A stretch of 64,000 nucleotides of DNA from a virus. The stretch lies in the IMG/VR virus record IMGVR_UViG_3300023181_000028, positions 1 through 64,000 of that record; one strand, 5' to 3'. A program made the translations under genes and the position numbers. The notes below the pieces were generated by a model. That model ran no database searches and had not been told where the DNA came from. It worked only from the letters and a program-made list of their open reading frames with translations. Below, piece after piece: positions 7,259 to 58,002 of this stretch. Each line of letters begins with the position of its first letter. Position 1 is the first letter of the stretch.

Positions 7259-7311
7259 TTACAATTTTTGTAAGGATTTGTGATTTTTTGATTCTATTAC
7301 AGATTTTGTAA
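7259..7311. promoter_or_regulatory. paired palindromes TTACA-N5-TGTAA (7259-7273, 7297-7311), 38 bp period, locus 1
   Basis: same geometry at three other loci. Confidence 0.85.
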
Positions 7312-7312
7312 T

Positions 7313-7442
7313 AAAAAAGAAACCCTCACCTTTTGTTTTCTCTGTGTTCAGCAAAGAAGTGCTTGGTGAGGGTATTTAAAATGGCTAGAGGCCGGATATT
7401 AAATGTCTTACTTAACTTACTTTGCTGAACGGGATAAAATTA
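7313..7442 (-). promoter_or_regulatory. -7-like element (7435-7442) plus leader with competing antiterminator and terminator stems
   Basis: GTTCAGCAAAG/CTTTGCTGAAC 11-bp IR interleaved with ACCCTCACC/GGTGAGGGT 9-bp IR followed by T-run. Confidence 0.65.
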
Positions 7443-7481
7443 CTACATCCTTTCATTCTGTGCAAATATTATTTTGTTAAA

Positions 7482-7883
7482 TTATTTAATCTTCTGATTA
7501 TAATTTCCAATACACCTGCATCCGCCGAAGTTTACGCTATACCCATTACCTAAACTATCGTTTAAAAACAGGCTAAACTTATTCTCCTGAACTATATACC
7601 CATTGCCATACAATACCATTCCAGGATTGTAATACACGCTCAAATCATCTCCCGCCTTACAATTGAAAGATAAATCTGTGATAGCCGCGCCAACCTTATT
7701 AGCCTTAACCACCCCATTTAACTTAATAATCAATGTATCTCCCGCTGAATTAGAACTTCGATTAGGATAGATATACGCTGAGTATTTGTGTTCTTTAATC
7801 ACCACGGGCGGATTCACCGACGGAGTTAATGGTTCTTTCTTACAAGCCACTAACATTAACGATAGTATTATTATTTTTTTCAT
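7482..7883 (-). CDS. lipoprotein
   Basis: start reassigned to 7883: MKKIIILSLMLVA-C-KKE lipobox. Confidence 0.75.
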   Translation of the reverse strand: MKKIIILSLMLVACKKEPLTPSVNPPVVIKEHKYSAYIYPNRSSNSAGDTLIIKLNGVVKANKVGAAITDLSFNCKAGDDLSVYYNPGMVLYGNGYIVQENKFSLFLNDSLGNGYSVNFGGCRCIGNYNQKIK

Positions 7884-7887
7884 GTTG

Positions 7888-8199
7888 TTAAATAGTGTAT
7901 TTCCACCTTTTTTTATGTTTGTTTTCCCTCTTAACAGGTATTGTATAACTAACTCCAATTACAAATCCACCTACAGCAGCACCCCATATTGTACTAAATG
8001 GGTCTTTAGGAGTGAAAATAGACACTGAGCATCCAAGAGCAGTGGAGCAGATAGTTCCCATTATAGGATGATCTGTTTGTTTTCTGAATATTAATCCTGA
8101 TGTTACCGTCACGCCGCACCCGAAGTAATTGAATAGTTTGCCTTGGGGGAACTGCGCGGATAATCTTAAACATATCAGCATTAACACAGCCGTTCTCAT
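7888..8199 (-). CDS. membrane protein
   Basis: signal-like N-terminus and Gly-rich hydrophobic segments. Confidence 0.65.
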   Translation of the reverse strand: MRTAVLMLICLRLSAQFPQGKLFNYFGCGVTVTSGLIFRKQTDHPIMGTICSTALGCSVSIFTPKDPFSTIWGAAVGGFVIGVSYTIPVKRENKHKKRWKYTI

Positions 8200-8339
8200 C
8201 CGTAAATAACTCTTAGGTAAGCTAAATAAAGCTCCAAATTGAAATGACCGGGCTTACAATCATTATTATCACTTTCCCAGAACCTTTTTGCTACATCTAT
8301 ATTAAATGGATGTTGTGTGGGTTGTAAATTAGTGTCCAT
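8196..8339 (-). CDS. small hypothetical protein (47 aa, MDTNLQPTQHPF...), not in ORF track
   Basis: read manually; ATGA overlap with next gene; follows ECF-like promoter. Confidence 0.65.
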   Translation of the reverse strand: MDTNLQPTQHPFNIDVAKRFWESDNNDCKPGHFNLELYLAYLRVIYG

Positions 8340-8366
8340 AGCTTGATTTTATTGGTTTATAAGAGG

Positions 8367-9866: not shown

Positions 9867-9881
9867 TAATTTGCAAATAAA

Positions 9882-22260: not shown

Positions 22261-22509
22261 ATGAGAAACAGGACTCCAAGAAAAACAAAAAAGCAATTAG
22301 GTAAAATGTTAATAATTTACGATAGAGCAGTGCTGCCGATTAACTTATCAATGTTAGACGTTCTAAATAGATTTAAAGACCACAAAGTTTTAGAGTGGGA
22401 CTCAAGTGCGGCTGGTAACGTTAGTTGCATGAATATAATGAGTAGGCCAGTAATAATGAATTATAGGAAAGGATTTCAAATAAAAAACAATTCCTTACAA
22501 AATCTGTAA
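22261..22509 (+). CDS. hypothetical protein
   Basis: 82 aa; last codons (LQNL*) are the TTACA palindrome. Confidence 0.6.
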   Translation: MRNRTPRKTKKQLGKMLIIYDRAVLPINLSMLDVLNRFKDHKVLEWDSSAAGNVSCMNIMSRPVIMNYRKGFQIKNNSLQNL

Positions 22510-22547
22510 TAAAACCCACAACCTTTAAATCCTTACAAAAAATGTAT
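22495..22547. promoter_or_regulatory. paired TTACA-N5-TGTAA palindromes (22495-22509; 22533-22547 with one mismatch), locus 2
   Basis: 38 bp period. Confidence 0.8.
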
Positions 22548-22733
22548 AAATCAGAGAAGTTAATAGAGGAGTTGATCTCCGCCGGAATAATAACAGATAA
22601 GCTCTGTGACAAGGTTAAGGCCAGATTAATAATAAGACAAACCCTGATTGAAATACATAATGAGGCAGTACTTGAAACTGTTATGGCTCACAATAAAGCA
22701 ACGTTTGTAGCCCCTCAATATTTAGATAAGTAA
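22542..22733 (+). CDS. hypothetical protein
   Basis: 63 aa ORF. Confidence 0.65.
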   Translation: MYKSEKLIEELISAGIITDKLCDKVKARLIIRQTLIEIHNEAVLETVMAHNKATFVAPQYLDK

Positions 22734-23011: not shown

Positions 23012-23467
23012 ATGAGTAAATTTGAATTACCAGCTAATTTCCCTAAAGCAAGAAGGGGTAGCGTTATCCTTAAACAGGTGATACAGGGGACTTCCATCAC
23101 TGACGGAGGTATTATCCTTGCAGATGCCGCCGAGAACGTCCAGCGCCCTAATGTAGGTATTATATACGCCACAGGAGAAGGCGTAGGAGAAGATCTAGCC
23201 CCTGGAATGAAAGTGTATTACAATCAATACGCCAACCTTGAGCTTCATATCAATGGCCGTCCTTATTTCATGATGCATGACGCGGATATCTATTGCATAT
23301 TGGATGATGAGAATCGCGTGGCTAATATCATTAAGCCAAAAGATGAAGTTCGCAGAGGTAAAAAGATCACCCAGCAGGCAGGAATGGTTAAGAGATTAGC
23401 TGTTAAAAGCGCTAACGACAAAGACAAAAGAGAAGAAACCTACAAAAAAATAATCAAGAAGAAATGA
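23012..23467 (+). CDS. groES: GroES/Cpn10-like co-chaperonin
   Basis: TDGGIILAD, GIIYATGEG, PGMKVYY, INGRPYFMMHDADI. Confidence 0.88.
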   Translation: MSKFELPANFPKARRGSVILKQVIQGTSITDGGIILADAAENVQRPNVGIIYATGEGVGEDLAPGMKVYYNQYANLELHINGRPYFMMHDADIYCILDDENRVANIIKPKDEVRRGKKITQQAGMVKRLAVKSANDKDKREETYKKIIKKK

Positions 23468-23796
23468 AAACTATCCAAAATCAAAAGCTAGTGTACATCA
23501 CTAAAGAACCCAACGCTACAATGACGGCTATTGAGGATAAGCACAATGACTCTGATTATTTTAAACTAATAGAAGAGTCTTGTAACAGACCTACTAACCC
23601 TCAAGTGGGATTTACATACGATGACATTAAAAGTATTGACAGGGTTAAAAAGGCTATTAAAGCCGCTAAGAAAGAGGTGATGAGCGTGGAGGATAAAGAC
23701 TTTGAATTTATTAAATCCCGCGTGGAAACTAAATCATGGGTGTCATCATCTATTGAAATAGCAGACTTTGTAGACTACATCAAAGGAATTAAATAA
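23464..23796 (+). CDS. hypothetical protein
   Basis: last gene of rightward arm. Confidence 0.75.
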   Translation: MKTIQNQKLVYITKEPNATMTAIEDKHNDSDYFKLIEESCNRPTNPQVGFTYDDIKSIDRVKKAIKAAKKEVMSVEDKDFEFIKSRVETKSWVSSSIEIADFVDYIKGIK

Positions 23797-36219: not shown

Positions 36220-36266
36220 ACGCAAATATAGCTAATATTGATGTATTTAAATTATTTGCATTTATT

Positions 36267-37909: not shown

Positions 37910-39316
37910 CTACTCGTACTTGCCAGTTTTCGGATTCCAAGTGTATTGATAACCATTCTGAGTTACAGTAGTGGGTCTATCTCCGCCACCCTCTTGAGGA
38001 GCATCAGCCATTAATTTAGATTTAGCAATATGGGCTTGTTGATTAAAAGCACCCGCATAACTTGAGTTCAATTCCACAGGCATAAAGCTCTTAACCTTAA
38101 CCATTTTTACATCTTCTCCCTTGCCATTAGCCTGTGTAATCAATTCAGCATTCTTATTCCATTCCGGTACAATCTCTTCTCCCTGAAAAGGATTCCAATT
38201 GCCATCATCGTATATCCCTTTCTCCTTAGCCACCTCTAAAGGAAGATAAGTGTAAGTTTCTACAAGTTTCTGTCTGCGTCCGCCAGCCTCTACATATTTA
38301 TGTCCGCCAGTGTAATAAATCCTATTACCTGTTATATCCAAAGGATTTTGACCCTTATTATCATAAATAATAGCTTTAGGTTTAGAGCCATAAGTTTGTT
38401 CTAAGAACTCAGGGCTAACCACACCTTCCTGGCGGTTAACAAAAGCGTCCTGATAAGCATTACTTGGATTTGCAATACCACTTGATTCTAATTTATTCTT
38501 ATACCCGGCAACTGTTAACGCATCACTTAATCCATAATCCCCAAAATCTCTCTTCTTAGGCACGTGAGCATTAATACCCTGTTCAATGTATGTCAATGGG
38601 TCTAAACCTTGTTTACGGGCTTCTATATCAATTTGGCGCTTATTCTGAGAATACATTTGCGTGGCAACCGCGCGTAATGACGTTGGGTCTGCAAATTCTT
38701 CATAAGCATTCCTTCCTCCCTTAATAGGTTTAGTCTTTAAATCCTTAAAGCTATTTCCTGTTTCCTGAAAAGCCTTGTTTATATCAATGAAGTCTCTAGG
38801 TTTCTGATATACAAACGCCTGTTTACCTTGTAACTTAGCAGCCTCTTCACCAGCTTGATTACCATATTTGAGATAATTTTGCCATTGGCCTTGCAAATCA
38901 TTGTAGGCTTGTGTATCATGTTGCTGAGGGTTCTTTGCAACTTCCGCCAAATCCTGTAAATAAGATTTATATGCACTATCAGAAGCAAGTCCTCTCAATA
39001 ATGTAGGATTGTCTTTAAGCGAACGTTTAAGTTCATTCAATTGCATTCTCTTGTCCACGTTAGTAGCCCAATCAGGATTCTCGCGGACAAATGAACCTAT
39101 CTTTTTAATAGTCGATTGAGATTCTAATTTTACAAGAGGATTATCATGCCCATTTATAGCATTCTGATAGTTAAGATCATCAGAGAAAAGTCGTGCTTTC
39201 TGGGCGGCCATAGCTTTTGCTCTAGCATCAGCTTGCTCATTATAACGAGCATCATTTATTTTCTGATCGAACTGTAAGTCAACTGCAAGTCCATTTATTG
39301 TACCAATCTCTGCCAT
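37910..39316 (-). CDS. putative virion ejection/cargo protein
   Basis: 468 aa; position between tail stabiliser and giant protein. Confidence 0.7.
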   Translation of the reverse strand: MAEIGTINGLAVDLQFDQKINDARYNEQADARAKAMAAQKARLFSDDLNYQNAINGHDNPLVKLESQSTIKKIGSFVRENPDWATNVDKRMQLNELKRSLKDNPTLLRGLASDSAYKSYLQDLAEVAKNPQQHDTQAYNDLQGQWQNYLKYGNQAGEEAAKLQGKQAFVYQKPRDFIDINKAFQETGNSFKDLKTKPIKGGRNAYEEFADPTSLRAVATQMYSQNKRQIDIEARKQGLDPLTYIEQGINAHVPKKRDFGDYGLSDALTVAGYKNKLESSGIANPSNAYQDAFVNRQEGVVSPEFLEQTYGSKPKAIIYDNKGQNPLDITGNRIYYTGGHKYVEAGGRRQKLVETYTYLPLEVAKEKGIYDDGNWNPFQGEEIVPEWNKNAELITQANGKGEDVKMVKVKSFMPVELNSSYAGAFNQQAHIAKSKLMADAPQEGGGDRPTTVTQNGYQYTWNPKTGKYE

Positions 39317-41295
39317 TAAATACCGTTTAAATAAGAGTTATCAATGTTAGTTCTGTTTGCAATAGCCCTTTTCTCAGCTTCGTATCGGCCAGCTCCAACT
39401 AAGTTGCTTAAACCTGTCCCGACCAAGTTAGCCCCTGCTTGCTGTGATTGTTGCCATCCTGTTAGTTTATCATTGAAGAGTCTACGAGACAGATCAACTT
39501 TCTGCAATCTTAGATTATCCGCGCTAGCAGCAATATTATCAGCCTCTCTTTGCTTCTGTAACTGTAATTGTCTGTTTGCCACAGAACTTGCTAAACCTCT
39601 TCCAAATGAATCATTTAAAGCGCTACGTTCCATGCCATAAGCATTCGCCGCGCTACCTCCACTATAATTCCTTGCTCCAAACCTTTGCGAAGCTGTGACA
39701 TTAGCATTGTTGTTATTAATCACCGCCTGTTCTTCCGGTGTAAATCCATAAGAAGCCCTTTGATAAGCATTTGCAGCACGATTATCTGCGTTGTTTAATG
39801 ATATTTGATAGTTAGGGTCAATTGAATCAACAGGTCTATCTCCTGCCTTTCTAAGGTAGTTTAAGCCTATTCCTGTTTGTAATAATGGAACTCCGTAATT
39901 TAACGCTGTAGATAATCCACTTCCAATAGCTGAATAGTTAGGTGTAGTTGAAGGGGTGGTTTCCGCCAATCTCGTGGCTAGTTCAGCTTCATAAGGGGCT
40001 AAATTAGCAGCGTCATCAATAGCACTATCTCCTTTTGTCACTGCCGCCGAAACCCCCTTAGCTAATCCGCTTGTAGGCGCTGTGATTGCATTGTCAATAT
40101 CCTGATTAGCCATTGTCTCTGCTAAGCTCTCAGAAGCATTACTTGATTTACTTATAGGCACCTTGCTACTTAATGAATTGCTTAATCCTTTTCCTGTTAC
40201 AGATGTAGTGGAAGTTTTAGGGATCTCAATACCTAATTTTTTAGCTAAATCTTGTTGGTATTTCTCAGGGCTTGAGCGATCAATTGTTCCTGTCTTGTAA
40301 GTTGCATCCAGAGAATCAATCTTCCCTTTTGTATATTTTAATATTGCTTCATTCTTAGCTTTGTTAGCAGGATCTTTATCCGCCAAAGCCTTATTTCTTA
40401 AAGCATATAAAGATTCAACCTTTGATAGGTATTCCTCTGTTTTGCCGTCTTTAATATTTTTAGTGTCAGGCTTCTCTACTCCCCCGCCTTTAGCATATCC
40501 TTTAACCTTACCTCCCTTGTTCATATAACCTCTAAGGTCATTCTGGGCATCCGGCGACAAGTCATCTAAATCTATTCCATTAGCTTCAATCTCCTCCACT
40601 TCCTCAGGAGTGAATAAATGTTCCCCATTTGAAAGTTTAACAGCAATGGCTTTGTCTTGGTTTAAATCAGCTTTACTATTCTCATCTTCACCTAACACTT
40701 CTTTACGAATAACCTCTGCCACCTTAGCGTTTTTCTTAGGTACAATATGCGAACCCTCTTTAACCTTAGCCTTAATACTATCAGATGTACCCGTTCCTTT
40801 ACCGACAACTTTACCTCCCTTGCTATATGAATTTCTACTTGCTAATTGATTAGCTAAATTACTATTGAATAATGTAGAGTTCTTAGCGTTTATTTCAGCC
40901 AGATTCTCTTCCTCATTTAATGTATTAATATCACTATTAGATTTATCAGCGTCCCTAAAGCCTTTAATAGCGCCTAGTGTTCCGCCAGCCAATAACCCTA
41001 TTCCACCACCTATCAATGTCCCAACTCCCGGCACCACTGAACCAATAGTTGCTCCTAATGAAGCGCCTTTGCCAGCAGCTTTTAATCCGCCGGATAGCGC
41101 AGCTTTGTTAGCGTCAATCATTCCGGCATCGTTAGGATTGTTTGTAGCGTCGATAAGAGAACCTGCGCCTGTAGCAAGTGCAGATCCGGCAGCAATAGAA
41201 GGGGAGTATGTATTTAACTTAGGGTCAATATACCCTCCATTGGCATATCCTTTAACTTTCTTAACTAAACCTGATTTCTTTTTAGGATTCTTCAT
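39316..41295 (-). CDS. putative virion ejection/pilot protein
   Basis: YANGG/YSKGG/YAKGG repeats, GKGTGTSDSI, LSNGE, Gly-zipper TM segment; -7 element at 41316-41323. Confidence 0.75.
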   Translation of the reverse strand: MKNPKKKSGLVKKVKGYANGGYIDPKLNTYSPSIAAGSALATGAGSLIDATNNPNDAGMIDANKAALSGGLKAAGKGASLGATIGSVVPGVGTLIGGGIGLLAGGTLGAIKGFRDADKSNSDINTLNEEENLAEINAKNSTLFNSNLANQLASRNSYSKGGKVVGKGTGTSDSIKAKVKEGSHIVPKKNAKVAEVIRKEVLGEDENSKADLNQDKAIAVKLSNGEHLFTPEEVEEIEANGIDLDDLSPDAQNDLRGYMNKGGKVKGYAKGGGVEKPDTKNIKDGKTEEYLSKVESLYALRNKALADKDPANKAKNEAILKYTKGKIDSLDATYKTGTIDRSSPEKYQQDLAKKLGIEIPKTSTTSVTGKGLSNSLSSKVPISKSSNASESLAETMANQDIDNAITAPTSGLAKGVSAAVTKGDSAIDDAANLAPYEAELATRLAETTPSTTPNYSAIGSGLSTALNYGVPLLQTGIGLNYLRKAGDRPVDSIDPNYQISLNNADNRAANAYQRASYGFTPEEQAVINNNNANVTASQRFGARNYSGGSAANAYGMERSALNDSFGRGLASSVANRQLQLQKQREADNIAASADNLRLQKVDLSRRLFNDKLTGWQQSQQAGANLVGTGLSNLVGAGRYEAEKRAIANRTNIDNSYLNGI

Positions 41296-41357
41296 TCGTA
41301 ATGAATTGATAATCTCAAAAGTAAGGATTTTTTCAATCTCTTGCTATTAAAGATTTA

Positions 41358-41410
41358 TTACAGATTTTGTAAGGAAATGCAATGGTTGTAAATTATTACA
41401 ATAATTGTAA
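41358..41410. promoter_or_regulatory. paired TTACA-N5-TGTAA palindromes (41358-41372, 41396-41410), locus 3
   Basis: 38 bp period; ends 8 bp upstream of ECF-like -35. Confidence 0.85.
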
Positions 41411-41418: not shown

Positions 41419-41447
41419 TGCAACCTTTTATAATTAGCTTCGTTAAA
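41419..41447 (+). promoter_or_regulatory. ECF-like promoter TGCAAC-N16-CGTTAAA
   Basis: heads inverted 3-gene island. Confidence 0.8.
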
Positions 41448-41457: not shown

Positions 41458-42201
41458 ATGATATTAATAGGTTCAAAAGCAATTAAACACCATTACCCTG
41501 AGTTTCCAAGAGAACCTAAGGATATAGATTACATAGTTAACACTAATAGTAATCTAAAAAGCGGCAACGGGATAGAGTATCTTCAAAATCCAATAATATA
41601 TAACAGATACAAGCCTTTTACTAATACCATTGTGTCTAAAGACGATTTAGCCACTATAAAAGCATCTCACCTTTTTTGGGATATAAAATGGGAAAAGCAC
41701 ATGTTTGATCTACAATTCTTACTTAAAAATGATTGCGAGATAAACGAAGAGTTGTTTTTTAAATTATACGAATACTGGAACGGTTTTCACAGCAAAAACA
41801 AAAGGAGTGACCTTAAAATGTCTAAAGAAGACTTTTTTACCAACAAAATAAATTACAGCCAGAATCAACATGACGACCTCCACAAAATAATAAATCCTAA
41901 TCCGGTTTATGAGATGTGTCTTTTGGACGGAAAGGAAGTTGAATTAGATGAAAATAAATTTAATTCTTTGTCACATGAAAATAAGTTGGAATTTGTAAGA
42001 GAAGAAGTTATGGTAATGGCATACGAAAGATATTCTGAATTAGGATACAAAATAGCTTATTCTAAAATGCTTAAAAAATTCATTATTAGTCACGCACCGT
42101 TGTTTTCTTTAATATTCATTTTAGAGAATTTCATTGAACTACATAAACCAAAATACAACTATATAAAACAAATAAACAATGGACTACAAAAAAATCAATG
42201 A
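41458..42201 (+). CDS. nucleotidyltransferase-like protein (Pol-beta superfamily GS...DxD)
   Basis: LIGSKA...PKDIDYI, IEY, IKASH...KH..D; helical C-terminal domain with HDDLH. Confidence 0.7.
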   Translation: MILIGSKAIKHHYPEFPREPKDIDYIVNTNSNLKSGNGIEYLQNPIIYNRYKPFTNTIVSKDDLATIKASHLFWDIKWEKHMFDLQFLLKNDCEINEELFFKLYEYWNGFHSKNKRSDLKMSKEDFFTNKINYSQNQHDDLHKIINPNPVYEMCLLDGKEVELDENKFNSLSHENKLEFVREEVMVMAYERYSELGYKIAYSKMLKKFIISHAPLFSLIFILENFIELHKPKYNYIKQINNGLQKNQ

Positions 42202-42758: not shown

Positions 42759-45700
42759 TTACCTCTTACTCTCAAAGAAGCTAGTCACTAATCTTAAAAT
42801 CTTAACACCTCTACTCACAACGCGCGGATCAGTATTCCAGTTTTTCTTGCGGAATGTCATAAGTAGATAAGAATTAGTTATACGACCTGCTCTTGATAAA
42901 GGGAGGTTACTTGTTATCTTATCGTATATCTTGCGGTAAAACCTGCTTGTAGACCTTATATTAACATCCTGAGCGGTTTGATCTTCCGCCTCAATATACA
43001 AGTCAGTGATATTCTCCATATTACCCTCCTGCTCTATATTTAATACAGAGAAAGGGTTTTGACTTCTTGGATTAACTACAAACTGCAATAGATTATTAAT
43101 AACCTGACCAAACACACTATTATACAAATAATCAGGTGCCACCGCTTGTCCTAACAATCTTGGCTGGTTATCCACCCACAATTCATTAGTTTGATTGATC
43201 TTAGCCCAATAAATAGAGCCTGGATAACCAGGAACTTCATCCCCAACTCCCGGATATGAAGCGATATCAACTTCCGCAATACAGATATACTCAGCATTCA
43301 TATAAGGAACTACATCTCCAACCTCAAACAGAGTGCCGTTCATTCCGGTTCCGTAGTACTTAACCTTATTCTTAGGATTGTTCGCATGAATTACAATTTG
43401 ATTATGGTTCCAACTTATCGCCGGAGTTTTATCGTAAAACCCTATAAATTGCTTGTCAGTGTGACTGTATCCAATAGTGAAGTCTTTGTTGTATTTTACT
43501 GTAACGCCTCTCTGAATGAACTTAAAAGTTAAATAAGTCATTTTAAACTTAGGATCATACACTCCACAAACACCCACTCCAATTAATGGCCTATCACTAT
43601 ACTTAGTAAACATAGGATCATTCAATAGATTATTAGAGATAGCCGAAGTATTGCCTATAACCTCTAAAAAAGCCTCGTTAAAGAATCCTTCTAATCCTTC
43701 TACCTTGCTTATCTCAGACACACCTTCGCCTAAACTAAGGGTAACTACAGCCTTTCTGCGCATATCAAACCACGCCCAGCCATATTCAGTGGCAGTTAAT
43801 CCCCATTGGTGCTGATTACCATAATAAGATGTTACAGGATCAAATCTTTCCACTACTCCTCCGGTTCCTAATGAGGTTTCTGCCCCATCTAAACCACTTA
43901 TCAATTGTCTTTCTAAAATAGGAATTAAGTCAATTGCAGAATTTTGCCATACAAACGTTCTACCATCCTTAGTCCTTAAATTATTAATCTCTCCACCATG
44001 CCCGTCAGTATCTTTCCTATCGTTAATAAGAAACGTTCTGAATGAATTAATAAGTTCGCCCGGAAACTTCTCTCCGCCAAACCTAATTCTATATCTGAAT
44101 GTGTTAGATGTTGAATAGTTTAAAGGAAGTGCCGGATAAGCCACGAAGTTACCATCACTTGAATATCCCTGATTATATTGAAAACCTTCTAATTGACTAC
44201 TTGTTCCTAGCTTATAGTAAATCCCATTGCCCGGAGTCGGATTAGAATGCATGAAATCAGGAGCAATCTTTCTTTTTGGAACACCTGTCCTTAAAGCGTA
44301 GTTAGCATTTGATTGACAAGGGAACTTAATACCCCATGAATAAGAACCCGTAGGGCTTCCATCAATAGGTTTTACAGCAGCATCATCATATAATGCGTAT
44401 CCATAATCCACTAACTGAGTGAAGCAATCTCCTCCAAATACCTCTACGTCATTAAATACATAGTTGCCACCAGACAATGTATCAGCTAATACAGCAGGTG
44501 TTATAGGTTGAAAATGTCCTGTTGAAATATAATTAGTGGTGGATAAAGCCGCCTCCGAATTACCTCCGTATTGGTTAGTTTTAGTATTAATAATGTTAAC
44601 CATCATTTTTCTCACTCCTGAGTTAGGAATAGAAGCATAGGTAGTGGCAACGTTATAGTCTAATAAAGTATCATCTGTAAGCTCTAAAATAGCTCTTAAT
44701 CCTCCGACTCCCACAGTATTTAAAGGAAGTGTATTAGTAGTATTAGGAACTCCGCTAAAGCATTCAGTATCTATATTTACAGCATTACCCGTATCAGTTA
44801 CATTTTGATAATAAATAGTTGTATTTGAGAATTGAGCAAGGTTAGCCTTCTCCGCTACATCAAACTTACTTTTAATAACTTCTGTTTGAGGCTCTGCCCC
44901 AGCATATCCTAATGTATCAAAATACTTAGTTTCAAACTCATTACTAGCAGGAGTGACAGATTTTAAATACCCAGCATCACCTAATTGGTTTTGAGCTTGA
45001 TCGCGCGGTCCAACCCAATAAGCCTCTTCAATAGACAACGAACCATCCGAAATACCATCTCCAAAATTAGTTATAGGGAAGTCAACTAAGTTGTCAGGGC
45101 AAATGAATGAATAAAACTTAGCCCTACTCCCCGGCGAATTGTCTTTACTTAACTTATGAACAGAGGCAGGTTGAATAACTGTATATCCAGATACTGTAGC
45201 ATAAGAATCAGTGGTTTGAAATAATAACCCTTGAGTTAATATCTTAGGATCTCTTTCCGCTCTCACAATACTAAACCCTGATATTTGCGCGGCAATCTCT
45301 GGTGAAATAGTGATACCGCTAAATCTAACTCCCGTCTGTAATGTATACAGAACATTTCCATCATTATCAGCTTCTATTAAAGTTGGCCCGCCATTACCTA
45401 AAAAAGGAACTGAATTACCATAAGCAGTTTCAATATCCGCTAAATGTCTTACGTAAAAAGGATTTCCCTTTAAATCATAAAACAATATTCCATATCTATA
45501 TTTATCACCCTCCCATATACCCTTTACATGGTGAGCAACTGTAGGATCTTTATAATCCCAATATCCCGAACTTAACAATAAAGCATCAGGGCGTGGAGTA
45601 CCACCTGTAGTAGTATATTTATTCCTACTTGCACATGGCCCTATGGTGCTTCCTAATGGAATGGTTACAGTGAAAACACCTGGAACCCCCACAAACACAT

Positions 45701-47195
45701 CTCCCGCATTATAATTATTTCCATTGTAGAATACAGGCCCATTTGAATCATTTGTAACTAACCAATGACTATATGGAGGAATTGCATTAGGCCCCGTAGG
45801 ATTATTAAATGGATCATAGTCTAAAGGAACATATGTCATCACATTTGAACAACTTGGCCCTGCCGCCCAATTATTATCTCTGTGCGCGGGAATAGGGTAG
45901 TCAAACTGTTCAATAGTTACACTTGACTTATCAAAAGCAAACTCTCCTCTTTCTGTAATGTTTCCAATAAGAATATAGTTCTTATTAGTGGTCATTGTTT
46001 TACAGGTCAAAATACTTGCAGGGAATAGCGTTAACTCATTTAAAGTTAAAGTACCTAAGTTTATATTACTTGAATGCTCAAATTGCATAGAAGCACTTGT
46101 AATGGCTTCATCTAAAATAATAGCTAGGTTTCTTGGAACATCCACTAATTGATCGAACTCCGCAACTGCAATCTGTATTCTTTGAAAGTTTAAATCTATA
46201 TTGTTAACAACAAGCACAACACTCTTACCGCTGTTAACTAAGGATGTAGGTGTTCCGCCACCAACGTCATTAAAATAGTCGTTAGAATCACCTAACCTTA
46301 CAGGAACCGGAAAACTACCATAAGACCATGATGTATAAATACCCTCAGTTGGATTACCCAGCCTGTAGAAGTACATTTTATTGCCGCAATACAAACTACC
46401 CGTTCCGTATTGACCAAAATAAATATTACCTAAACTCCTTGAGGGAGTAAAACTTAATAACTGATAAGCTACGTAGCGAATAACCTTTGGAGTGGGAGCT
46501 GTACCTGTAACAGATGTGTAATTAGCATTTACAGCAGTGAATACATTGCCTACAATCGTTCCGGCGACACTTGGCCCATACTGAACCCCATTATGCGTTA
46601 TAACACCCTCTAATACCATGTATTGAGTTCCGGTTATTAATCCACCACTAGCTATATAGGTAGTGTAAATAGGGTTGCCAATGTCAATAACACGCGGTTC
46701 ATTCAAATCGTCAGTCCAATACACCCTTTGAATGTCATCGTTCTCCTGAAAAGCAAAGCCTTCTATTTGTTGGAGTTTAGTAAACTTGAGATCAGAACTG
46801 TGATATAAAGGAACATAACCGTCGTTGTTATTGCCTGCCACTATAACCGGAGCAACACCTTCTCCATAAGGTTGGTAATTAATTAATCCAATCTCCCCAT
46901 ATCCGCCAGCTTCACTTTCGCTATTCGTGGAAAACACTACTAATTTATCAGGGAATGAAATAAAGCCTATTGGCATAGGGGGCAAATCAAATGTAGTTGA
47001 AGTACCACCGTATCGGATATTAATAACAAACGTCCTTACATTACCTAAACAGTCTTTAATCACATAGTTATTACCATCCTGAGATAATAAACTACAATTA
47101 ACACAATGTCTGTATGTACCATCAGGCTGATAAAGGACATTGTAGTCCTTAGTCATACCCTTATTAAATGTGTTTACGTGTGATTGCATTACCAA
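42759..47195 (-). CDS. tail stabilisation/muzzle protein (P22 gp10-like, crAss-type)
   Basis: NTFNKGMTKD start, VYWTD..NEPR, YRYGILFYD.KG, FGGDCF, YGNQHQW. Confidence 0.88.
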   Translation of the reverse strand: MVMQSHVNTFNKGMTKDYNVLYQPDGTYRHCVNCSLLSQDGNNYVIKDCLGNVRTFVINIRYGGTSTTFDLPPMPIGFISFPDKLVVFSTNSESEAGGYGEIGLINYQPYGEGVAPVIVAGNNNDGYVPLYHSSDLKFTKLQQIEGFAFQENDDIQRVYWTDDLNEPRVIDIGNPIYTTYIASGGLITGTQYMVLEGVITHNGVQYGPSVAGTIVGNVFTAVNANYTSVTGTAPTPKVIRYVAYQLLSFTPSRSLGNIYFGQYGTGSLYCGNKMYFYRLGNPTEGIYTSWSYGSFPVPVRLGDSNDYFNDVGGGTPTSLVNSGKSVVLVVNNIDLNFQRIQIAVAEFDQLVDVPRNLAIILDEAITSASMQFEHSSNINLGTLTLNELTLFPASILTCKTMTTNKNYILIGNITERGEFAFDKSSVTIEQFDYPIPAHRDNNWAAGPSCSNVMTYVPLDYDPFNNPTGPNAIPPYSHWLVTNDSNGPVFYNGNNYNAGDVFVGVPGVFTVTIPLGSTIGPCASRNKYTTTGGTPRPDALLLSSGYWDYKDPTVAHHVKGIWEGDKYRYGILFYDLKGNPFYVRHLADIETAYGNSVPFLGNGGPTLIEADNDGNVLYTLQTGVRFSGITISPEIAAQISGFSIVRAERDPKILTQGLLFQTTDSYATVSGYTVIQPASVHKLSKDNSPGSRAKFYSFICPDNLVDFPITNFGDGISDGSLSIEEAYWVGPRDQAQNQLGDAGYLKSVTPASNEFETKYFDTLGYAGAEPQTEVIKSKFDVAEKANLAQFSNTTIYYQNVTDTGNAVNIDTECFSGVPNTTNTLPLNTVGVGGLRAILELTDDTLLDYNVATTYASIPNSGVRKMMVNIINTKTNQYGGNSEAALSTTNYISTGHFQPITPAVLADTLSGGNYVFNDVEVFGGDCFTQLVDYGYALYDDAAVKPIDGSPTGSYSWGIKFPCQSNANYALRTGVPKRKIAPDFMHSNPTPGNGIYYKLGTSSQLEGFQYNQGYSSDGNFVAYPALPLNYSTSNTFRYRIRFGGEKFPGELINSFRTFLINDRKDTDGHGGEINNLRTKDGRTFVWQNSAIDLIPILERQLISGLDGAETSLGTGGVVERFDPVTSYYGNQHQWGLTATEYGWAWFDMRRKAVVTLSLGEGVSEISKVEGLEGFFNEAFLEVIGNTSAISNNLLNDPMFTKYSDRPLIGVGVCGVYDPKFKMTYLTFKFIQRGVTVKYNKDFTIGYSHTDKQFIGFYDKTPAISWNHNQIVIHANNPKNKVKYYGTGMNGTLFEVGDVVPYMNAEYICIAEVDIASYPGVGDEVPGYPGSIYWAKINQTNELWVDNQPRLLGQAVAPDYLYNSVFGQVINNLLQFVVNPRSQNPFSVLNIEQEGNMENITDLYIEAEDQTAQDVNIRSTSRFYRKIYDKITSNLPLSRAGRITNSYLLMTFRKKNWNTDPRVVSRGVKILRLVTSFFESKR

Positions 47196-48371: not shown

Positions 48372-49167
48372 TCCTAATGTCCGCTACTTGCTGCCTTTCA
48401 ATATTAAATTCCTTCGTTAGTATTTCTAATTCAATCTGTCTCATCATCTCTCCACCAGCAGGATAAGGATCAGTGTCCTTATAAGCTACAAACTGAGAAT
48501 ATAAATAAACGCTTCCCGAACCCTGATAAGTAGTGTCGGTTACAGCAGTGAACGATGTACATGGTTCTAACACTACCCCTTCATAAACTATCTGATTTCC
48601 TAAAACATAATACTTGATTCCTGGAACTAAAGTTGTAACGGGAGCAGAATTAATTAAAAATCCTTCCGCCGGATCTAACAATATGCCTATAAACCTTAGT
48701 TTCTCTACAACCCTATCCACATAGATAGTTGTATTAACCCTTGCGTACTTAGCAAATAGTTTATTAGTATGACCTTCGGGAGTATATCTCCACTGAGACA
48801 TTCTACTTGGGTAATATGTTGTTTTACCACATAAAGATATAAGGCTATAAACACCTAAATCCAAGTTACCGTCTTTACTCTGTAATGTTATAGTTTGAGG
48901 GATAGTGGACTTGGATATATCCCAGCAGCATGATTGATCTACTGTATCTCCCGATGTAACCCTATGAAATGTTAAATGAGTTCCTTCTGATAGCCAAGCA
49001 AAGTCTATAACGCCTGTACGTGCGTATTGAGCGATAATAAACTCTGCCCTAACCTGATTGTATTTGTATAACAGCCAGTCGTCATCAAGCCTCGAATCAT
49101 CAGTTATGCCGAAACGGGCAAGGATGTTCTTTAAGCTATCAATTGCATTTTTGGCTGTTTGTGGCAT
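48337..49167 (-). CDS. ring/adaptor structural protein (crAss-type)
   Basis: TDDSRLDD.W....NQVRA; C-terminal D.YP...NDSKD; -7 element at 49172-49179. Confidence 0.75.
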   Translation of the reverse strand: MPQTAKNAIDSLKNILARFGITDDSRLDDDWLLYKYNQVRAEFIIAQYARTGVIDFAWLSEGTHLTFHRVTSGDTVDQSCCWDISKSTIPQTITLQSKDGNLDLGVYSLISLCGKTTYYPSRMSQWRYTPEGHTNKLFAKYARVNTTIYVDRVVEKLRFIGILLDPAEGFLINSAPVTTLVPGIKYYVLGNQIVYEGVVLEPCTSFTAVTDTTYQGSGSVYLYSQFVAYKDTDPYPAGGEMMRQIELEILTKEFNIERQQVADIRNDSKDDASKAL

Positions 49168-49183
49168 AAAGCAAATATACTAC

Positions 49184-49594
49184 TTAATGTATTAGGATAA
49201 TCAGGCCGGATAATATTAATGTAGTGCAGCCAAATATTAACGTGGTAGACTTGAAGTTCTTTAACTTCTTTTCCTGCTTGTTGTATTTAATTACAAGTTC
49301 ATCATTAGCCTCTTTACGCGCGGCAATCTCATCATTCTTAACCTTCAATATAGACTCGTGTTTATCGTAACTGTCCGCCATCTTCAATATAATGCGATTT
49401 AAGCCTTTTATCTTATCAGCCTTTAATGTAGTATCAATTCTCAGGAATTGCGCGTCACGTTGCTCAAAAAGCAGGTAATCAATGCGCTCAACTGACATAC
49501 ATATAATGGAATCATTTTCCTGTGCCTTTAAAGAGACTGTCGATGTAACGAATACGAGAAGCGGTAGTAAAATTCTTAAACTGTTTTTTAGCAT
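49184..49594 (-). CDS. spanin-like component (signal peptide, coiled coil, C-terminal TM)
   Basis: overlaps upstream gene; downstream of endolysin and holin. Confidence 0.6.
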   Translation of the reverse strand: MLKNSLRILLPLLVFVTSTVSLKAQENDSIICMSVERIDYLLFEQRDAQFLRIDTTLKADKIKGLNRIILKMADSYDKHESILKVKNDEIAARKEANDELVIKYNKQEKKLKNFKSTTLIFGCTTLILSGLIILIH

Positions 49595-51178: not shown

Positions 51179-51615
51179 TGTGGTGGGCTTTTAGTGATTT
51201 TAATTTTAGGCACGTATTTTAATGTGTCCGGCCAGTTTCTCTTACTTACTGTATCAGTTTTGATATCTATGTGATCCTCCAACTTGGGAGAAGCAAGTAT
51301 AACTATTCTTTTAATCTTTTTTTTATTCTCAGCCTTTTTAGGCATCTTTAAAGCGCTAAAATCCCTTTTTTGTAGTTCGATAAGCGCCGGATTTGAAGAG
51401 TCGTTTATGTGGTAGTTATTCAGGAATGTGGGGGCTAATTCCACAGAATATTCATTCATTATTTCCCCATATAAATTATTCTTCAGGTCTAAACTATGCA
51501 CGGCAAACCAAGCCCCGAACATCTCAAATATTACAAATGATAATAATATTAAAGATTTTGCCGTCTTTAAAAAGTCTAATATACCATCTAAAATATTAAT
51601 GGTTATGGCTTTCAT
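51175..51615 (-). CDS. membrane-anchored hypothetical protein
   Basis: one TM near N-terminus, lysis region. Confidence 0.6.
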   Translation of the reverse strand: MKAITINILDGILDFLKTAKSLILLSFVIFEMFGAWFAVHSLDLKNNLYGEIMNEYSVELAPTFLNNYHINDSSNPALIELQKRDFSALKMPKKAENKKKIKRIVILASPKLEDHIDIKTDTVSKRNWPDTLKYVPKIKITKSPPQ

Positions 51616-51808
51616 ATTGCTTCATTAATAAATTCACATTCACTTTAAGCTCCGCAATGGTTATTTTAATATCTGTCATAGCCTCCGCGTTTGTTGCCCA
51701 ATCCTTATTATAAGCAAAAAAGCAGCCAACGATAAGAGTTATAACACTGAGGTATTCTTTTATATAGTCCCAAAATGTTTTAGGCTCTGGCTTCTTTGCT
51801 GCTGTCAC
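51596..51808 (-). CDS. small TM plus coiled-coil protein (holin/antiholin-like)
   Basis: TM followed by heptads. Confidence 0.6.
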   Translation of the reverse strand: MTAAKKPEPKTFWDYIKEYLSVITLIVGCFFAYNKDWATNAEAMTDIKITIAELKVNVNLLMKQYESHNH

Positions 51809-52193
51809 TTATATTTGGATAAAGTTTATAAATCAAAACAAATATTGTAAATACAAATATAACCTTATCTACAATACCAAAACTGTATACATTAGCATAA
51901 GTTCTTTCCCACGCATCTGTCAAAATCAAATTACACGGAACCGTTAATATCGCTCCCACAAATCTATGTCCAAAGTAAGCACAAAGCAAACTACACACAC
52001 TAACAAATGCTGCGGTAATTAAAGATAATATCCTTTTTTCCAACCTATAACCATCTTGCCAGCAATAAATATCATCACACATAGTAGGGTATTTCATTCT
52101 CACGTATGTGTCTTTATACATAAACCAATAAGTTGCAAGAATTACCAAGCAACTTATTAGCGTAATGTACATTATTTTAATCCTCTTACTCAC
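51780..52193 (-). CDS. multi-TM membrane protein
   Basis: about four hydrophobic segments; GTG start. Confidence 0.7.
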   Translation of the reverse strand: MSKRIKIMYITLISCLVILATYWFMYKDTYVRMKYPTMCDDIYCWQDGYRLEKRILSLITAAFVSVCSLLCAYFGHRFVGAILTVPCNLILTDAWERTYANVYSFGIVDKVIFVFTIFVLIYKLYPNISDSSKEARA

Positions 52194-55095: not shown

Positions 55096-55105
55096 AAATT
55101 AATAA

Positions 55106-56713
55106 TTAGTCAATTACTGTATCAGATCCAACAGACCAGAACTCAGTGATATTCGGAACCGCAGCAACACTATTTAAGTTAGTGTACTGGAAGAAAGGAA
55201 TAAGCACAGTACCAGCAGCAAACACTAAAGGCACAGTAGTTCCTACAGAGTAGATAGGGTAAGATACGTTGTTCACAAACGCTGTTACAGTACCATCAAT
55301 GGCAACCTCTACGCGGAAGTCATAAACAACCGTAGTGAGTAAGTTAACCGCAGAAGTAGTAGTTACAGAAGCGGCAGAAACCAATGAACCGTAAGTTGCA
55401 ATCGCAGTTCCAGCAGCGCCAGTTCCAATAGTAGCAAGTTTACCGTATGTTCCAAAAGCTGCTTGGTGAGCCTCTTTACTTCTGAATCCAACCATGAACA
55501 CAATGTTCGCAGGAGTTGTAAAAGATGCCTTAGCGTTAACCGTAGCAGGAGTTTTACCAACAATGAATTGCTGACTGTTATTCGTGCTTAAAGAAGGAGT
55601 ATAAGCAGCACCCTCAGTTGCAGTTGCATCTTGCTCAAACAAGAAACCTGTAGCGGAGTTAGCACCTGTAACGATAGTTTGAGTTCCAATGTTAAAGTGA
55701 TTCAACATTCCATAAGGAGTAAGGAACTTGTTAGCAACACCAGCAGTTGTAGCAGGAGCCGCGCCAAGTAAACCTTGCTCTACGAAATCTTGGTCAAACC
55801 ATTGTTGAACTAAAGAAGCGTCCATGTAACAAGTTTGAACCATCAATTTACGAAGTTCACGCTCAGCAGTTAAGAAACCAGCTAAGTTAGTTGTAGATGA
55901 TCCAGTACCATTATCCACAGCGATTGCAGATTCACGAGGAACATATACATACTGACCTGATAGATTTGCACCAACGATCTCTTTTAAAGAGTTGATAACG
56001 AAAATATCATAATTCTGACCAGCGGTAGCATAAGTCTTAGGATTAGTTGCAGTTCCAAAAGGAGCATCTAAATTACCTTGAATTAAGTTACCATACATAT
56101 AGTCGATAACCGGAGCTTGTTGCGCCAATTTAGCACCTACACCACTTGAAGTCTGACCCGCAGTTGTTACAGTGAAATTACTTCTTGTGAAACCTGATTG
56201 ATCTGGATTAGCCACAGTGATTACAGTACTAGCGAATTTCTCGTTAGTCATTGTCTGTGATTTCTCTGGATAGTAATCAGTGTTATCTGTTACTGTGAAA
56301 CCATTACCACTTCCTAAAGAAACGGCAGTAACGCGATTCACACCACTCTCTAAGTTGATTTTAGCAACTAAACCAGCGTGGATAGCCTCACGTTGCTGAG
56401 CAACCGTACCGTAAATGTTTACGTTAGAATTGGTTTGAAATGTGTAACGTCTAAGGTTTTCCTGATAACCATCTCTAGTACGGTTAGGATCACCAATTGC
56501 TACTGTATAATTTGTTAAACCGGTTGGCGTATAAGCCGTGTTACCTACTGTTACTACTTGAGCCACAGCGGCGCGATACTTGATTTGAACGATTCCGGTT
56601 ACATTCTTTTTAAGAATTTCCTTCAAACCTGTGATGTTAATTTTTCCACCACTGCACTGCACATCCGCATTTGAGGATGTTTTCAACAGTACTGATTCTC
56701 TTACTGATTTCAT
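55106..56713 (-). CDS. auxiliary capsid/major structural protein
   Basis: 535 aa, own promoter-like element (56745-56752) and terminator, downstream of MCP. Confidence 0.7.
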   Translation of the reverse strand: MKSVRESVLLKTSSNADVQCSGGKINITGLKEILKKNVTGIVQIKYRAAVAQVVTVGNTAYTPTGLTNYTVAIGDPNRTRDGYQENLRRYTFQTNSNVNIYGTVAQQREAIHAGLVAKINLESGVNRVTAVSLGSGNGFTVTDNTDYYPEKSQTMTNEKFASTVITVANPDQSGFTRSNFTVTTAGQTSSGVGAKLAQQAPVIDYMYGNLIQGNLDAPFGTATNPKTYATAGQNYDIFVINSLKEIVGANLSGQYVYVPRESAIAVDNGTGSSTTNLAGFLTAERELRKLMVQTCYMDASLVQQWFDQDFVEQGLLGAAPATTAGVANKFLTPYGMLNHFNIGTQTIVTGANSATGFLFEQDATATEGAAYTPSLSTNNSQQFIVGKTPATVNAKASFTTPANIVFMVGFRSKEAHQAAFGTYGKLATIGTGAAGTAIATYGSLVSAASVTTTSAVNLLTTVVYDFRVEVAIDGTVTAFVNNVSYPIYSVGTTVPLVFAAGTVLIPFFQYTNLNSVAAVPNITEFWSVGSDTVID

Positions 56714-56819
56714 TTTTTAATTTAGTTTAAATTGTTTATATGCGTAAATGTCGGATTAATTCAAATACAAAACACATTTTAACAATTAAAATGAAACCTT
56801 TTTGGAATTATAGAGCCAT

Positions 56820-57641
56820 TTAACTCCTCTCAACTTCTGAATCGACTGCCTGAGCCGCCGGATAATTACTTGTTACTAATAACATAATCCTAGAAGCTGC
56901 TTTACATATCTCATCGTGAACCTTCTCGGGTAAATCCACTGGCGATGTATTACTAGCCAAGATAACCTGACCAGAAGTTAAATCTGCCGTACCTGCCGTA
57001 AATTGATCCCCTATTTGATAAGTGTTAGTATTCTCTACACTTACTTCCACCGCAATATAATCATCCCCCGGAGTCAATACGCCCGTACCTTCGTCTATTA
57101 ATTGATCTTCTGAGCCTACACTAAAGTCCACAGGAGTTCTTAGGTACGTTAGTTTGGCAGTTGTGAATGTTCCGCCAACACCCCTATGAATTGTAAGCCC
57201 TGTAGCATCTTCATTATAATACGTTTTAAGATTGGTTGGATGCTTAAAGCTATCTTTTAATAACGGCCCAAGTTCATTGAATGTAATGGGTCTACTGTAA
57301 TCCCAGAACGCGTCTATAAGCGTGTCTAATTGAACAAAAGCATAATAATCAGGCGGAAAGTTAATATGGCTTGGAGTGGACGAATAATACCTATTAGCCC
57401 TAACTGTACCGTTAGTTATAGAGGGAGTTGCCACTGCTATCAAAGTGAATAGATCGTCGCGAATTTGTTGAATCCATTGGAAGTTCTCAGGATTACGCTG
57501 CTTCTCATCTCCGACCTTTTCATCTATATAATTATGTATAGCGTCATTCACAGCCTTATTGTAATCTGAGAAGAAGAAGCGGGCGTTACGTGACACATCT
57601 AAATAAAAATCTATTCTGGCAAGGGTCTGTAGTGCATTCAT
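56820..57641 (-). CDS. head-tail adaptor/ring protein (crAss-type)
   Basis: Q.IRDDL..L, FP.DY, LTYLR.P, DLPE.VH.EI. Confidence 0.8.
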   Translation of the reverse strand: MNALQTLARIDFYLDVSRNARFFFSDYNKAVNDAIHNYIDEKVGDEKQRNPENFQWIQQIRDDLFTLIAVATPSITNGTVRANRYYSSTPSHINFPPDYYAFVQLDTLIDAFWDYSRPITFNELGPLLKDSFKHPTNLKTYYNEDATGLTIHRGVGGTFTTAKLTYLRTPVDFSVGSEDQLIDEGTGVLTPGDDYIAVEVSVENTNTYQIGDQFTAGTADLTSGQVILASNTSPVDLPEKVHDEICKAASRIMLLVTSNYPAAQAVDSEVERS

Positions 57642-57658
57642 CTGTAAGTTGTTTCCAC

Positions 57659-57829
57659 AAATATACTAAATAAAAAAGCCGCCCATTAAAAGCGGCTCCA
57701 AATGATCTTTTGCCATTTAAACATTCCTTACACGTCTGCAAGGCGATAATCGTAATCCCGATTCTCTCTGATGCGCTGGTCAAGTGGAAGCGTAGAGTTG
57801 CTGCGGTAAATATACTAAATAAAAAAGCC
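57659..57829. repeat. 22-bp direct repeat AAATATACTAAATAAAAAAGCC (57659-57680, 57808-57829)
   Basis: on minus strand each copy is a terminator tail fused to a TATATTT(G/A) promoter element. Confidence 0.9.
57672..57802 (-). ncRNA. candidate ~130-nt structured small RNA (cassette 2)
   Basis: -7 element 57807-57814; terminator 57672-57696; internal hairpins. Confidence 0.65.
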
Positions 57830-57964
57830 TCCGGTTAAAGAGGCTTAGTAAAGTGTTCAGTCTTCACTTCGTAAACGTTTTATAGGTTTTATTTTAATCT
57901 CGGCGAACGTTAACCACTTTTAACCGAAAAGGATTGAGTTTTAAATCTATTACAAATATTGTAA
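57821..57964 (-). ncRNA. candidate ~145-nt small RNA (cassette 1)
   Basis: -7 element 57970-57977; terminator 57821-57846; no ATG inside. Confidence 0.6.
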
Positions 57965-58002
57965 TGAAACAAATATAATTAAAATCCTTACAAATTCTGT
58001 AA
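57950..58002. promoter_or_regulatory. paired TTACA-N5-TGTAA palindromes (57950-57964, 57988-58002), locus 4
   Basis: 38 bp period; brackets the -7 element of sRNA cassette 1. Confidence 0.85.

Follow-up and report, generated by a model that had tools for sequence, protein, structure and literature searches.

The virus record IMGVR_UViG_3300023181_000028 in IMG/VR (hereafter G000) represents an uncultured phage from a leaf-litter metagenome. Its genome of 80,011 bp has a terminal overlap of ~139 bp, and its first 64 kb (positions 1 to 64,000) form the window analyzed here, in which an initial annotation had noticed four pairs of the palindrome TTACA-N5-TGTAA. The phage is crAss-like, with open reading frame (ORF) 42759-47195 matching the Crassvirus muzzle protein (E = 1.5e-85); judged by the capsid protein, the nearest cultured relatives are Flavobacterium FpV4-like phages, at 25% identity. 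The public sequencing runs containing the phage are two leaf-litter DNA runs, one of them probably from the source sample, with no RNA run listed. The four paired sites of the window, denoted L1 to L4, and the genes for two winged-helix proteins considered below as candidate binders are as follows:

6524..7252, minus strand: gene for a 242-residue protein with winged-helix domains at residues 10-100 and 170-241 and a long helix between them
7259..7311: site L1, two exact palindromes separated by a 23-bp spacer; on the minus strand, a terminator-like hairpin precedes it and the GTG start codon (7252) follows
22495..22547: site L2, inside a rightward operon, palindrome 2 with one mismatch
41358..41410: site L3, between the divergent genes 39316-41295 (minus strand) and 41458-42201 (plus strand)
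57950..58002: site L4, one palindrome of which contains the stop codon of ORF 57988-58422 (minus strand)
genome 79615-79971, minus strand, outside the window: gene for a small winged-helix protein of 115 residues (115-118 residues across its family)

Seven exact copies of TTACA-N5-TGTAA start in the window, at 7259, 7297, 22495, 41358, 41396, 57950, and 57988. Shuffled sequences yield 0.12 +/- 0.33 copies and none of 100 shuffles reaches seven, in agreement with the earlier estimate of less than one single site per window by chance. The eighth palindrome, at 22533, ends in TGTAT and thus carries one mismatch. The pairs reported by the initial annotation (7259/7297, 22495/22533, 41358/41396, and 57950/57988), its count of seven perfect palindromes out of eight, and the offset of 38 bp, equivalent to a 23-bp inner spacer, in all four pairs were confirmed. 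Two further pairs lie beyond the window (74433/74471 and 77742/77780), again with the 38-bp offset, which is accordingly the same in 6 of 6 pairs of the genome. Unpaired sites elsewhere, had they been numerous, were to count against a paired element; a scan of all 80,011 bp found no unpaired exact TTACA-N5-TGTAA. The contexts described for the four window sites also hold, namely the leader of gene 6524-7252, a mid-operon position, the vicinity of a TGCAACC-N16-CGTTA motif at 41419, and a TATATTTG box straddled by the two palindromes of L4. Likewise, the two ORFs noted for their common LQNL ending, 22261-22509 (plus strand) and 57988-58422 (minus strand), both terminate inside a palindrome.

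The exact bipartite N5 pattern occurs in only two other IMG/VR contigs. In the related genome G001 (54 kb, 71% complete), there are seven pairs, with spacers of 23 bp in six and 24 bp in one; only 2.4 kb of its DNA can be aligned with G000, and the common proteins are 23-57% identical, which means that the sites persist where the DNA itself no longer aligns. A first scan with the N5 motif left 26 capsid relatives apparently without it. The homologue of 6524-7252 in G029/G030, however, shows the same arrangement with TTACA-N4-TGTAA and an unchanged 23-bp spacer, a variant that explains this apparent absence. When the relatives were rescanned for either N4 or N5 with few mismatches, with the reversed pattern as a control, 6 sites were found in G015, 6 in G030, 7 in the complete genome G032, and at least 7 in G033, along with single sites in G006, G007, G004, L023, and L082. 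With up to 3 mismatches allowed, the true pattern gave 63 raw matches and the control 1. About 15 IMG/VR contigs contain a degenerate N4 bipartite pattern. In the relatives without sites (G013, G025, G031, G021, and G010), a generic search turned up no paired palindromes of another kind. Across 596 Gb of prokaryote genomes, matches to the exact N5 bipartite pattern are limited to eight singletons in unrelated taxa, a chance-level result; the sites are not a host regulon.

The dyad is of the N5 type in G000 and G001 and of the N4 type elsewhere, at orthologous places, even though the capsid protein of G000 is 70% and 63% identical to those of N4 genomes vs 54% to that of G001. Given that the palindrome type switches genome-wide at orthologous positions, all sites of a genome appear to follow one trans-acting factor. 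Independent insertions of a mobile repeat would not produce a concerted N5/N4 change within genomes. The paired palindromes are a real, conserved, and most likely regulatory system.

Comparison of 152 half-sites yielded the logo a-W-T-T-Y-M-TTACA-R-A, with T1 conserved in 95%, A3 in 86%, and C4 and A5 each in 98% of the half-sites, and a W-rich, variable center. The conserved flanks seen initially are therefore real and are better described as part of this extended half-site, stronger on the inner side of each palindrome. No compensatory (covarying) changes between the palindrome arms were detected in this comparison, and single-strand folding of the palindromes is weak (-2.7 to -8.3 kcal/mol per 71 nt, z-scores of -0.9 to -3.0). 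Because the half-site bases are kept and the center varies without compensation, the pattern points to base readout on duplex DNA. The sites share with operators of dimeric regulators an inverted pair of half-sites spaced by roughly one helical turn, constant in their bases and free in their center, as well as over-representation in the genome and retention at orthologous places in relatives. The inner spacer is 23 bp in 36 of 38 curated sites irrespective of the dyad type, such that the conserved quantity is the edge-to-edge distance, with dyad centers 37 bp (N4) or 38 bp (N5) apart. What is maintained in relatives is thus the spacer, and not the 38-bp spacing as originally formulated, which becomes 37 bp in the many genomes with N4 dyads. 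The notion of a fixed-geometry, protein-type site composed of two dyads is borne out by the conserved half-sites, the free center, and a spacer that stays constant among genomes sharing 23-57% protein identity. The spacer sequences are in general unrelated, as first described, but not between orthologous sites, such as the 74433 site and its counterpart in G032.

The promoter-like and terminator-like features around the window sites, which bear on how the sites might act, are the following:

7312..7372, minus strand: terminator-like hairpin CCCTCACC / GGTGAGGG with a long loop, followed by a T-run, directly upstream of L1, as read from the sequence
41419..41445, plus strand: TGCAACC-N16-CGTTA motif with the shape of an extracytoplasmic function (ECF)-sigma-like promoter, beside L3
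57675..57846, minus strand: two terminator-like hairpins (57825-57846 and 57675-57699), each followed by ATTTAG-TATATTT
57970..57977, minus strand: perfect TATATTTG box of the Bacteroidota -7 type in the L4 spacer, 5 nt before the downstream palindrome

In L2, palindrome 1 contains the stop codon of ORF 22261-22509 and palindrome 2 the ATG of ORF 22542-22733. The site lies upstream of a GroES-like gene (23012-23467); the site at G006 4876 is orthologous, of the N4 type and with the same flanking genes, and further counterparts in the GroES-like region are found at G001 5924 and G015 68150. The 82-residue product of ORF 22261-22509 (plus strand) matches the interior of the portal genes of relatives (G015 23605-23745, G006, G007, and G013). 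Its homologue in G001 is free-standing (73 residues; 48974-49195, minus strand) and likewise terminates inside a palindrome, so this ORF looks like a detached portal fragment traveling with its site.

L3 is located 34 nt from a TACTTTTG box (41316-41323, minus strand) and 9 nt upstream of the TGCAACC-N16-CGTTA motif; placed between these divergent promoter-like motifs, it would be transcribed from neither putative promoter. The sites at G015 48898, G030 1116, and G032 11624 (after the muzzle gene) each lie ~11 nt downstream of the same motif. A dispersed motif of this kind, TGCAACCTT-N15/16-CGT(T/A)A, is present at 8395 (minus strand) and at 9882, 36267, and 41419 (all plus strand), ahead of several gene blocks. 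Its shape is that of an ECF-sigma promoter, and it is found again in G015, G030, and G032; no gene for a sigma factor was recognized. Another palindrome, TTGCA-N6-TGCAA, occurs five times (window 9871, 15150, 28800, and 36256; genome 65252), and the TGCAACC motif lies immediately next to the copies at 9871 and 36256.

Between L4 and gene 56820-57641, the two minus-strand hairpins delimit two short non-coding units. These tandem units (57675-57950, minus strand) are ORF-free stretches of ~130 nt that could encode small RNAs, with no Rfam match; relatives have a single junction here. Ahead of the homologue of 56820-57641, relatives have a terminator and a canonical TAnnTTTG promoter, G001 has a terminator and a site abutting the ATG, and G000 has L4 plus the two short terminator/promoter units.

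Beyond the window, a perfect TTGACA-16-TATAAT at genome 74397-74424 (L081:10397-10424, plus strand) ends 8 nt before the 74433 site. This site stands at the head of the rightward early region and has counterparts at G032 43540 and G030 30902, with a spacer partly conserved between G000 and G032; the G032 orthologue has a TTGTAA-16-TATAAT inside it. The TTGACA-16-TATAAT sequence heads ~760 bp without a long ORF and would be unexpected if the host uses only Bacteroidota-type -33/-7 promoters.

A promoter overlaps or directly precedes the site at 74433, L4, G032 43540, G015 48898, G030 1116, and G032 11624, an arrangement that, judged from these motifs, would fit repression; most of the remaining sites have no recognizable promoter within 110 nt. 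Two more general schemes were discarded: a sigma-70-type promoter in every site, with TTGTAA as the -35 element and a -10 element at a set position of the spacer, for which TAnnnT is not enriched over the composition expectation by a rough estimate, and a canonical TAnnTTTG box in every spacer, which is perfect in L4 only. One site of G001 (8899) lies at the junction of two convergent gene blocks. This position, the placement of L3 in an untranscribed gap, and conservation without covariation jointly argue for action on duplex DNA. Scans with Rfam and for tRNAs found nothing at or near the sites, and a T-arm-like stretch after G015 2109 was not called as a tRNA.

The small winged-helix protein follows the distribution of the sites. 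Its gene is the last ORF of the leftward (minus-strand) block headed by L1, and in G000, G015, G030, and G032, an L1-type site lies upstream of it on its own strand. The family is present in 5 of 5 large site-bearing genomes (G000, G015, G030, G032, and G033) and in neither of the two complete site-less relatives (G025 and G031). AlphaFold2 (AF2) modeling returned a winged helix with a predicted local distance difference test (pLDDT) value of 81, and the protein is predicted to form a homodimer, with a score of 0.69 vs 0.02 for the best of three controls. The mark applied here is reached by 20 of 30 proteins solved as same-chain pairs and by 1 of 23 solved as single chains, counts that hold only roughly for a run using an author-made alignment. 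Contact agreement between runs was at least 96% and partner pLDDT at least 87, with an interface formed by the N- and C-terminal strands. The recognition-helix region reads SFNTGIFRLEK in G000 and in P0023, a 64% identical homologue, compared with FSTSLFR (G015, G030, and G032) and FGTSLHR (G033) in the N4 genomes; this tracking of the N4/N5 dyad type is suggestive, the N5 side being represented by one genome. In the Protein Data Bank (PDB), the best sequence match of the small-protein profile is the BlaI DNA-binding domain (1p6r; E = 0.03-0.04). The copy from G015 (P0012, 4161-4511) is filed at NCBI under a metagenome-assembled genome of Melioribacteraceae, a hint that the hosts may be Ignavibacteriota rather than Bacteroidota.

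Taken from sequence, the reading to which we give somewhat better than even credence is that a winged-helix regulator encoded by the phage, autoregulated and mainly repressive, uses the paired palindromes as operators in double-stranded DNA. One regulator dimer would occupy each palindrome, and hence two dimers each site, the most likely binder being the 115-residue protein encoded at genome 79615-79971. In G000, it would bind six sites, acting mainly as a repressor or roadblock. Since its gene belongs to the block headed by L1, the circuit would be autoregulated, provided that the block is one transcription unit, as the ORF layout suggests. Besides this leftward regulatory block, the putative targets are the rightward early operon (sites 74433 and 77742), the GroES-like cassette, the accessory cassette at 41.4 kb, and the small non-coding unit at 57.9 kb. 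The two dimers could cooperate across the 23-bp spacer; with dyad centers 37-38 bp apart, or ~3.5 helical turns, they would sit on roughly opposite faces of the helix.

Several observations weigh against this operator model. The distance between dyad centers is out of helical phase for a simple dimer-dimer contact, and the change from N5 to N4 shifts the half-site phasing by ~34 degrees, which is unusual for orthologous dimers. The co-occurrence of sites and small protein rests on seven genomes, several of them from related samples, and G013 encodes a weak match to the protein (E = 9e-8) and has no sites. The small protein belongs to no curated family, with sub-threshold Pfam matches only (DnaD_N, MarR, Phage_rep_O, and Penicillinase_R), and its Foldseek matches in the PDB are generic winged-helix folds. 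Finally, no promoter can be recognized at L1, at G001 39671, or at the sites of the two-winged-helix gene in G030 and L082, all of which lie after a terminator and right next to a start codon. At such places, the site itself may supply promoter function; this order of terminator, site, and start codon is the chief observation left unexplained and leaves room for a promoter reading.

The initial annotation favored the 242-residue protein 6524-7252 as the binder. Its gene is the first after L1 in the leftward block, and the site lies 4-9 nt before the start of the family gene in G000, G030/G029, G032, and L082, whose proteins are 43-55% identical; a terminator-like hairpin precedes site and gene at least in G000, G030, and L082. 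The closest homologue is P0002 (81%), and no match was found among cultured-phage records. Fold searches (Foldseek PDB, VIA wide) returned generic winged-helix matches only, neutral as to family; the profile matches RepL and HTH_36 (a helix-turn-helix family) weakly, and a profile comparison showed no relation to the small winged-helix protein. A dimer of this protein, with four DNA-reading heads on the four half-sites, might repress its own gene and act at the other sites, and the two winged-helix domains joined by a long helix in its AlphaFold model (pLDDT 81) would match such a scheme. We nevertheless consider it rather unlikely. The predicted co-occurrence of the sites with this gene holds in G000, G030, G032, and L082 and fails in three genomes: the family is absent from G015 (91% complete, 6 sites), where the syntenic slot holds only a GIY-YIG gene, and from G033 (94% complete, at least 7 sites), and it is present in G031, a complete genome with no sites. 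Furthermore, two similar palindromes contrast with two winged-helix domains of differing sequence, and a helix of 31 residues would be too short for dyad centers ~125 A apart unless the DNA were strongly bent. The protein is thus retained as the second-best candidate binder or as a co-regulated target.

The remaining explanations differ in what is supposed to recognize the sites. They might be promoters, or promoter-proximal signals, for a phage transcription machine such as the virion RNA polymerase (ORF 30094-36225), with the palindromes read as extruded hairpins in the manner of phage N4. Such a role would account for the order of terminator, site, and start codon without a host-type promoter at L1, G001 39671 (where relatives have a canonical promoter), and L023, and hairpins could readily tolerate a loop change from N5 to N4 at a constant spacer; for the virion polymerase of phi14:2, which favors denatured DNA, an early promoter motif is not known (bioRxiv 10.1101/2020.03.07.982082). 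However, the hairpins form but are weak, as the folding energies above indicate, and their stems never covary, although this is because the stems do not vary. In addition, sites are also found downstream of strong host-type promoters, where gene blocks converge, and between the capsid gene and its terminator; the motif is missing from relatives with the same polymerase, and the sites instead track the small DNA-binding protein. A promoter role of this kind therefore appears improbable. So does its more elaborate version, to which we assign an equally low chance, in which two extruded hairpins 23 nt apart would serve the crAss-type virion RNA polymerase of this clade as its promoter signal and the small protein would be a co-evolving specificity or shut-off factor. 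Even less probable, in our judgment, is a role as replication-initiator sites, origins, or loading sites, with both winged-helix proteins as DnaD-, lambda-O-, or RepL-like initiators. The sub-threshold Pfam similarity of the small family to DnaD_N (10 of 19 members, best E = 3.5e-4) and Phage_rep_O, the weak RepL and HTH_36 matches of 6524-7252, and the long non-coding AT-rich stretches adjoining L1 and the 74433 site point in this direction, but every family match is below the curated cut-offs, iteron clusters or AT-rich unwinding elements are not adjacent as a rule, and six or seven dispersed sites, many between stop and start codons inside operons, are unlike known phage origins.

An RNA element, in which two small leader or intercistronic hairpins would control translation, stability, or antitermination downstream, is compatible with the start codon lying 0-7 nt from the downstream palindrome in about half of the sites and with the mostly A-rich central bases on the coding strand (10 vs 3 in G000 and G001). 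The latter bias, however, follows the general strand skew, and the stems consist of five A/T-rich pairs without compensatory change; the form TTACA..TGTGA, common in G032, leaves C opposite A on the leader strand of the two-winged-helix gene. With L3 transcribed from neither flanking promoter-like motif, G001 8899 at a convergent junction, and no Rfam match, we regard an RNA role as very unlikely. Hardly credible at all is the proposal, prompted by the even dispersal of the four window sites, of genome-architecture (matS/parS-like), packaging, or ejection sites at regular intervals. These four sites alone are indeed unusually even (coefficient of variation [CV] of 0.09, matched by 0.9% of random placements). 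Once the two sites beyond the window are included, the gaps around the circle measure 15.2, 18.9, 16.6, 16.5, 3.3, and 9.4 kb (CV of 0.40; 3% of random placements are as even or more so), and in relatives, the gaps range from 1.4 to 24 kb, with CVs of 0.83 in G001, 0.55 in G015, and 0.70 in G030. The failure of regular spacing in the whole genome and in relatives removes the sole support of this proposal; site positions follow gene boundaries and orthologous genes, not distance. The chromosome-organizing parS and matS sites, by comparison, keep a regular or domain-specific spacing among relatives, which is not the case here.

Several neighboring features and similar repeats were recorded alongside the sites. 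Upstream of L1, an ORF in 7482-7884 (minus strand) begins with a lipoprotein-like signal (MKKIIILSLMLVACKK) and may encode a superinfection-exclusion or surface protein. Genes resembling GIY-YIG endonucleases lie in or beside the site-headed regulatory block (window 5902-6474, minus strand; G015 2520-2987; G001 51269-52162), identified by a Pfam match for the window copy and by sequence homology or motif for the other two. The sites were also considered as targets of these endonucleases, an idea that was dropped, as multi-copy intergenic palindromes do not fit homing targets. Near a contig end of G033 (70347-71250; L118:10347-11250), paired and single TTACA-N4-TGTAA are densely packed within 900 bp, unlike the isolated pairs elsewhere. 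G002 (IMGVR_UViG_3300028920_000005), an 89-kb phage, contains four TTACA-N5-TGTAA in 120 bp (L013:5700-5900) with offsets of 32, 38, and 33, a fifth copy 1.1 kb away, and an adjoining second repeat family, an array reminiscent of classical clusters of operators or iterons. In the 15 kb examined around this array, neither candidate protein was found to have a homologue, and the array was treated as an independent operator cluster and not as part of the paired-site system.

For crAss-like phages, to our knowledge, the literature describes host-type middle promoters alone and no circuit of regulator and operator, and the timing of gene expression is largely unexplained. The present analysis provides a conserved set of six to seven putative regulatory sites per genome, a named candidate regulator together with a second candidate, and a geometry rule in which the 23-bp spacer is constant while the dyad is either N4 or N5. 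The lineages in which N5 has switched to N4 at orthologous sites amount to a natural experiment, and all of these points can be tested with purified proteins and short DNA, with no need for phage culture. If the system is a genome-wide repressor circuit, it could bear on how such phages, here an uncultured leaf-litter virus, persist without lysogeny.

Among known systems, BlaI, MecI, and CopY are dimeric winged-helix repressors with operators of the form TACANNTGTA, often with two dyads per control region, and the half dyad of Bacillus licheniformis OP1 ends in TTACAT (PMC1935004, PMC7253601). The half-site core (T)TACA / TGTA(A) is shared with the paired palindromes. Here, however, the half-sites are separated by 4-5 bp and not by 2 as in TACA-N2-TGTA, no sensor or protease partner is present, and the small protein remains below the family threshold of Penicillinase_R (PF03965; best E = 0.094, 3 of 19 members), so the resemblance is a lead only and not membership. 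The middle promoters of phi14:2 and other crAss-like phages are tripartite, directional, host-polymerase promoters, conserved in intergenic regions just before start codons (Drobysheva et al., bioRxiv 10.1101/2020.03.07.982082). One palindrome arm is similar to the TTTGTA core in the -10/-7 block of these promoters. Unlike these promoters, the spacers show no enrichment of a -10 hexamer at a fixed place, and G000 has canonical TAnnTTTG promoters of its own elsewhere.

The lambda OL and OR regions, bound by the small dimeric repressors Cro and CI, are two clusters of three operators at the immunity region that overlap early promoters. The circuit proposed here would share with them palindromic operators over early promoters, a regulator gene next to its own operators, and the logic of early shut-off; it differs in that six to seven identical two-dyad units are spread over all genome modules. 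The stoperators of Cluster A mycobacteriophages, bound by the L5 gp71 repressor, are dispersed and located in very short intergenic gaps, often over stop or start codons, and one repressor is thought both to shut promoters and to block elongation. Like them, the paired palindromes are one short site repeated around a phage genome in tight gaps and overlapping stop or start codons. Stoperators, however, are asymmetric single sites of 13 bp in one orientation to transcription and act in lysogenic immunity, whereas the sites described here are palindromic and always paired across a 23-bp spacer, and occur only six to seven times per genome in a crAss-like phage whose annotated parts show no integrase; their GGAWWT flank points with the gene direction at some sites and against it at others. 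In the KorA/KorB regulon of IncP plasmids, element-encoded regulators act on scattered palindromic operators, some overlapping promoters and others distant, and the regulator genes are themselves operator-controlled, as we propose for the regulator of the paired sites. KorB is, in addition, a ParB-family protein that also functions in partition, and the IncP operators are single palindromes on a plasmid; the phage sites are paired, and neither a ParB-like protein nor a partition role is indicated here. In its logic, the present system resembles both the stoperators and the Kor regulon; what sets it apart from them is the obligate two-dyad unit, with its fixed 23-bp spacer and its lineage-wide switch between N4 and N5 dyads.

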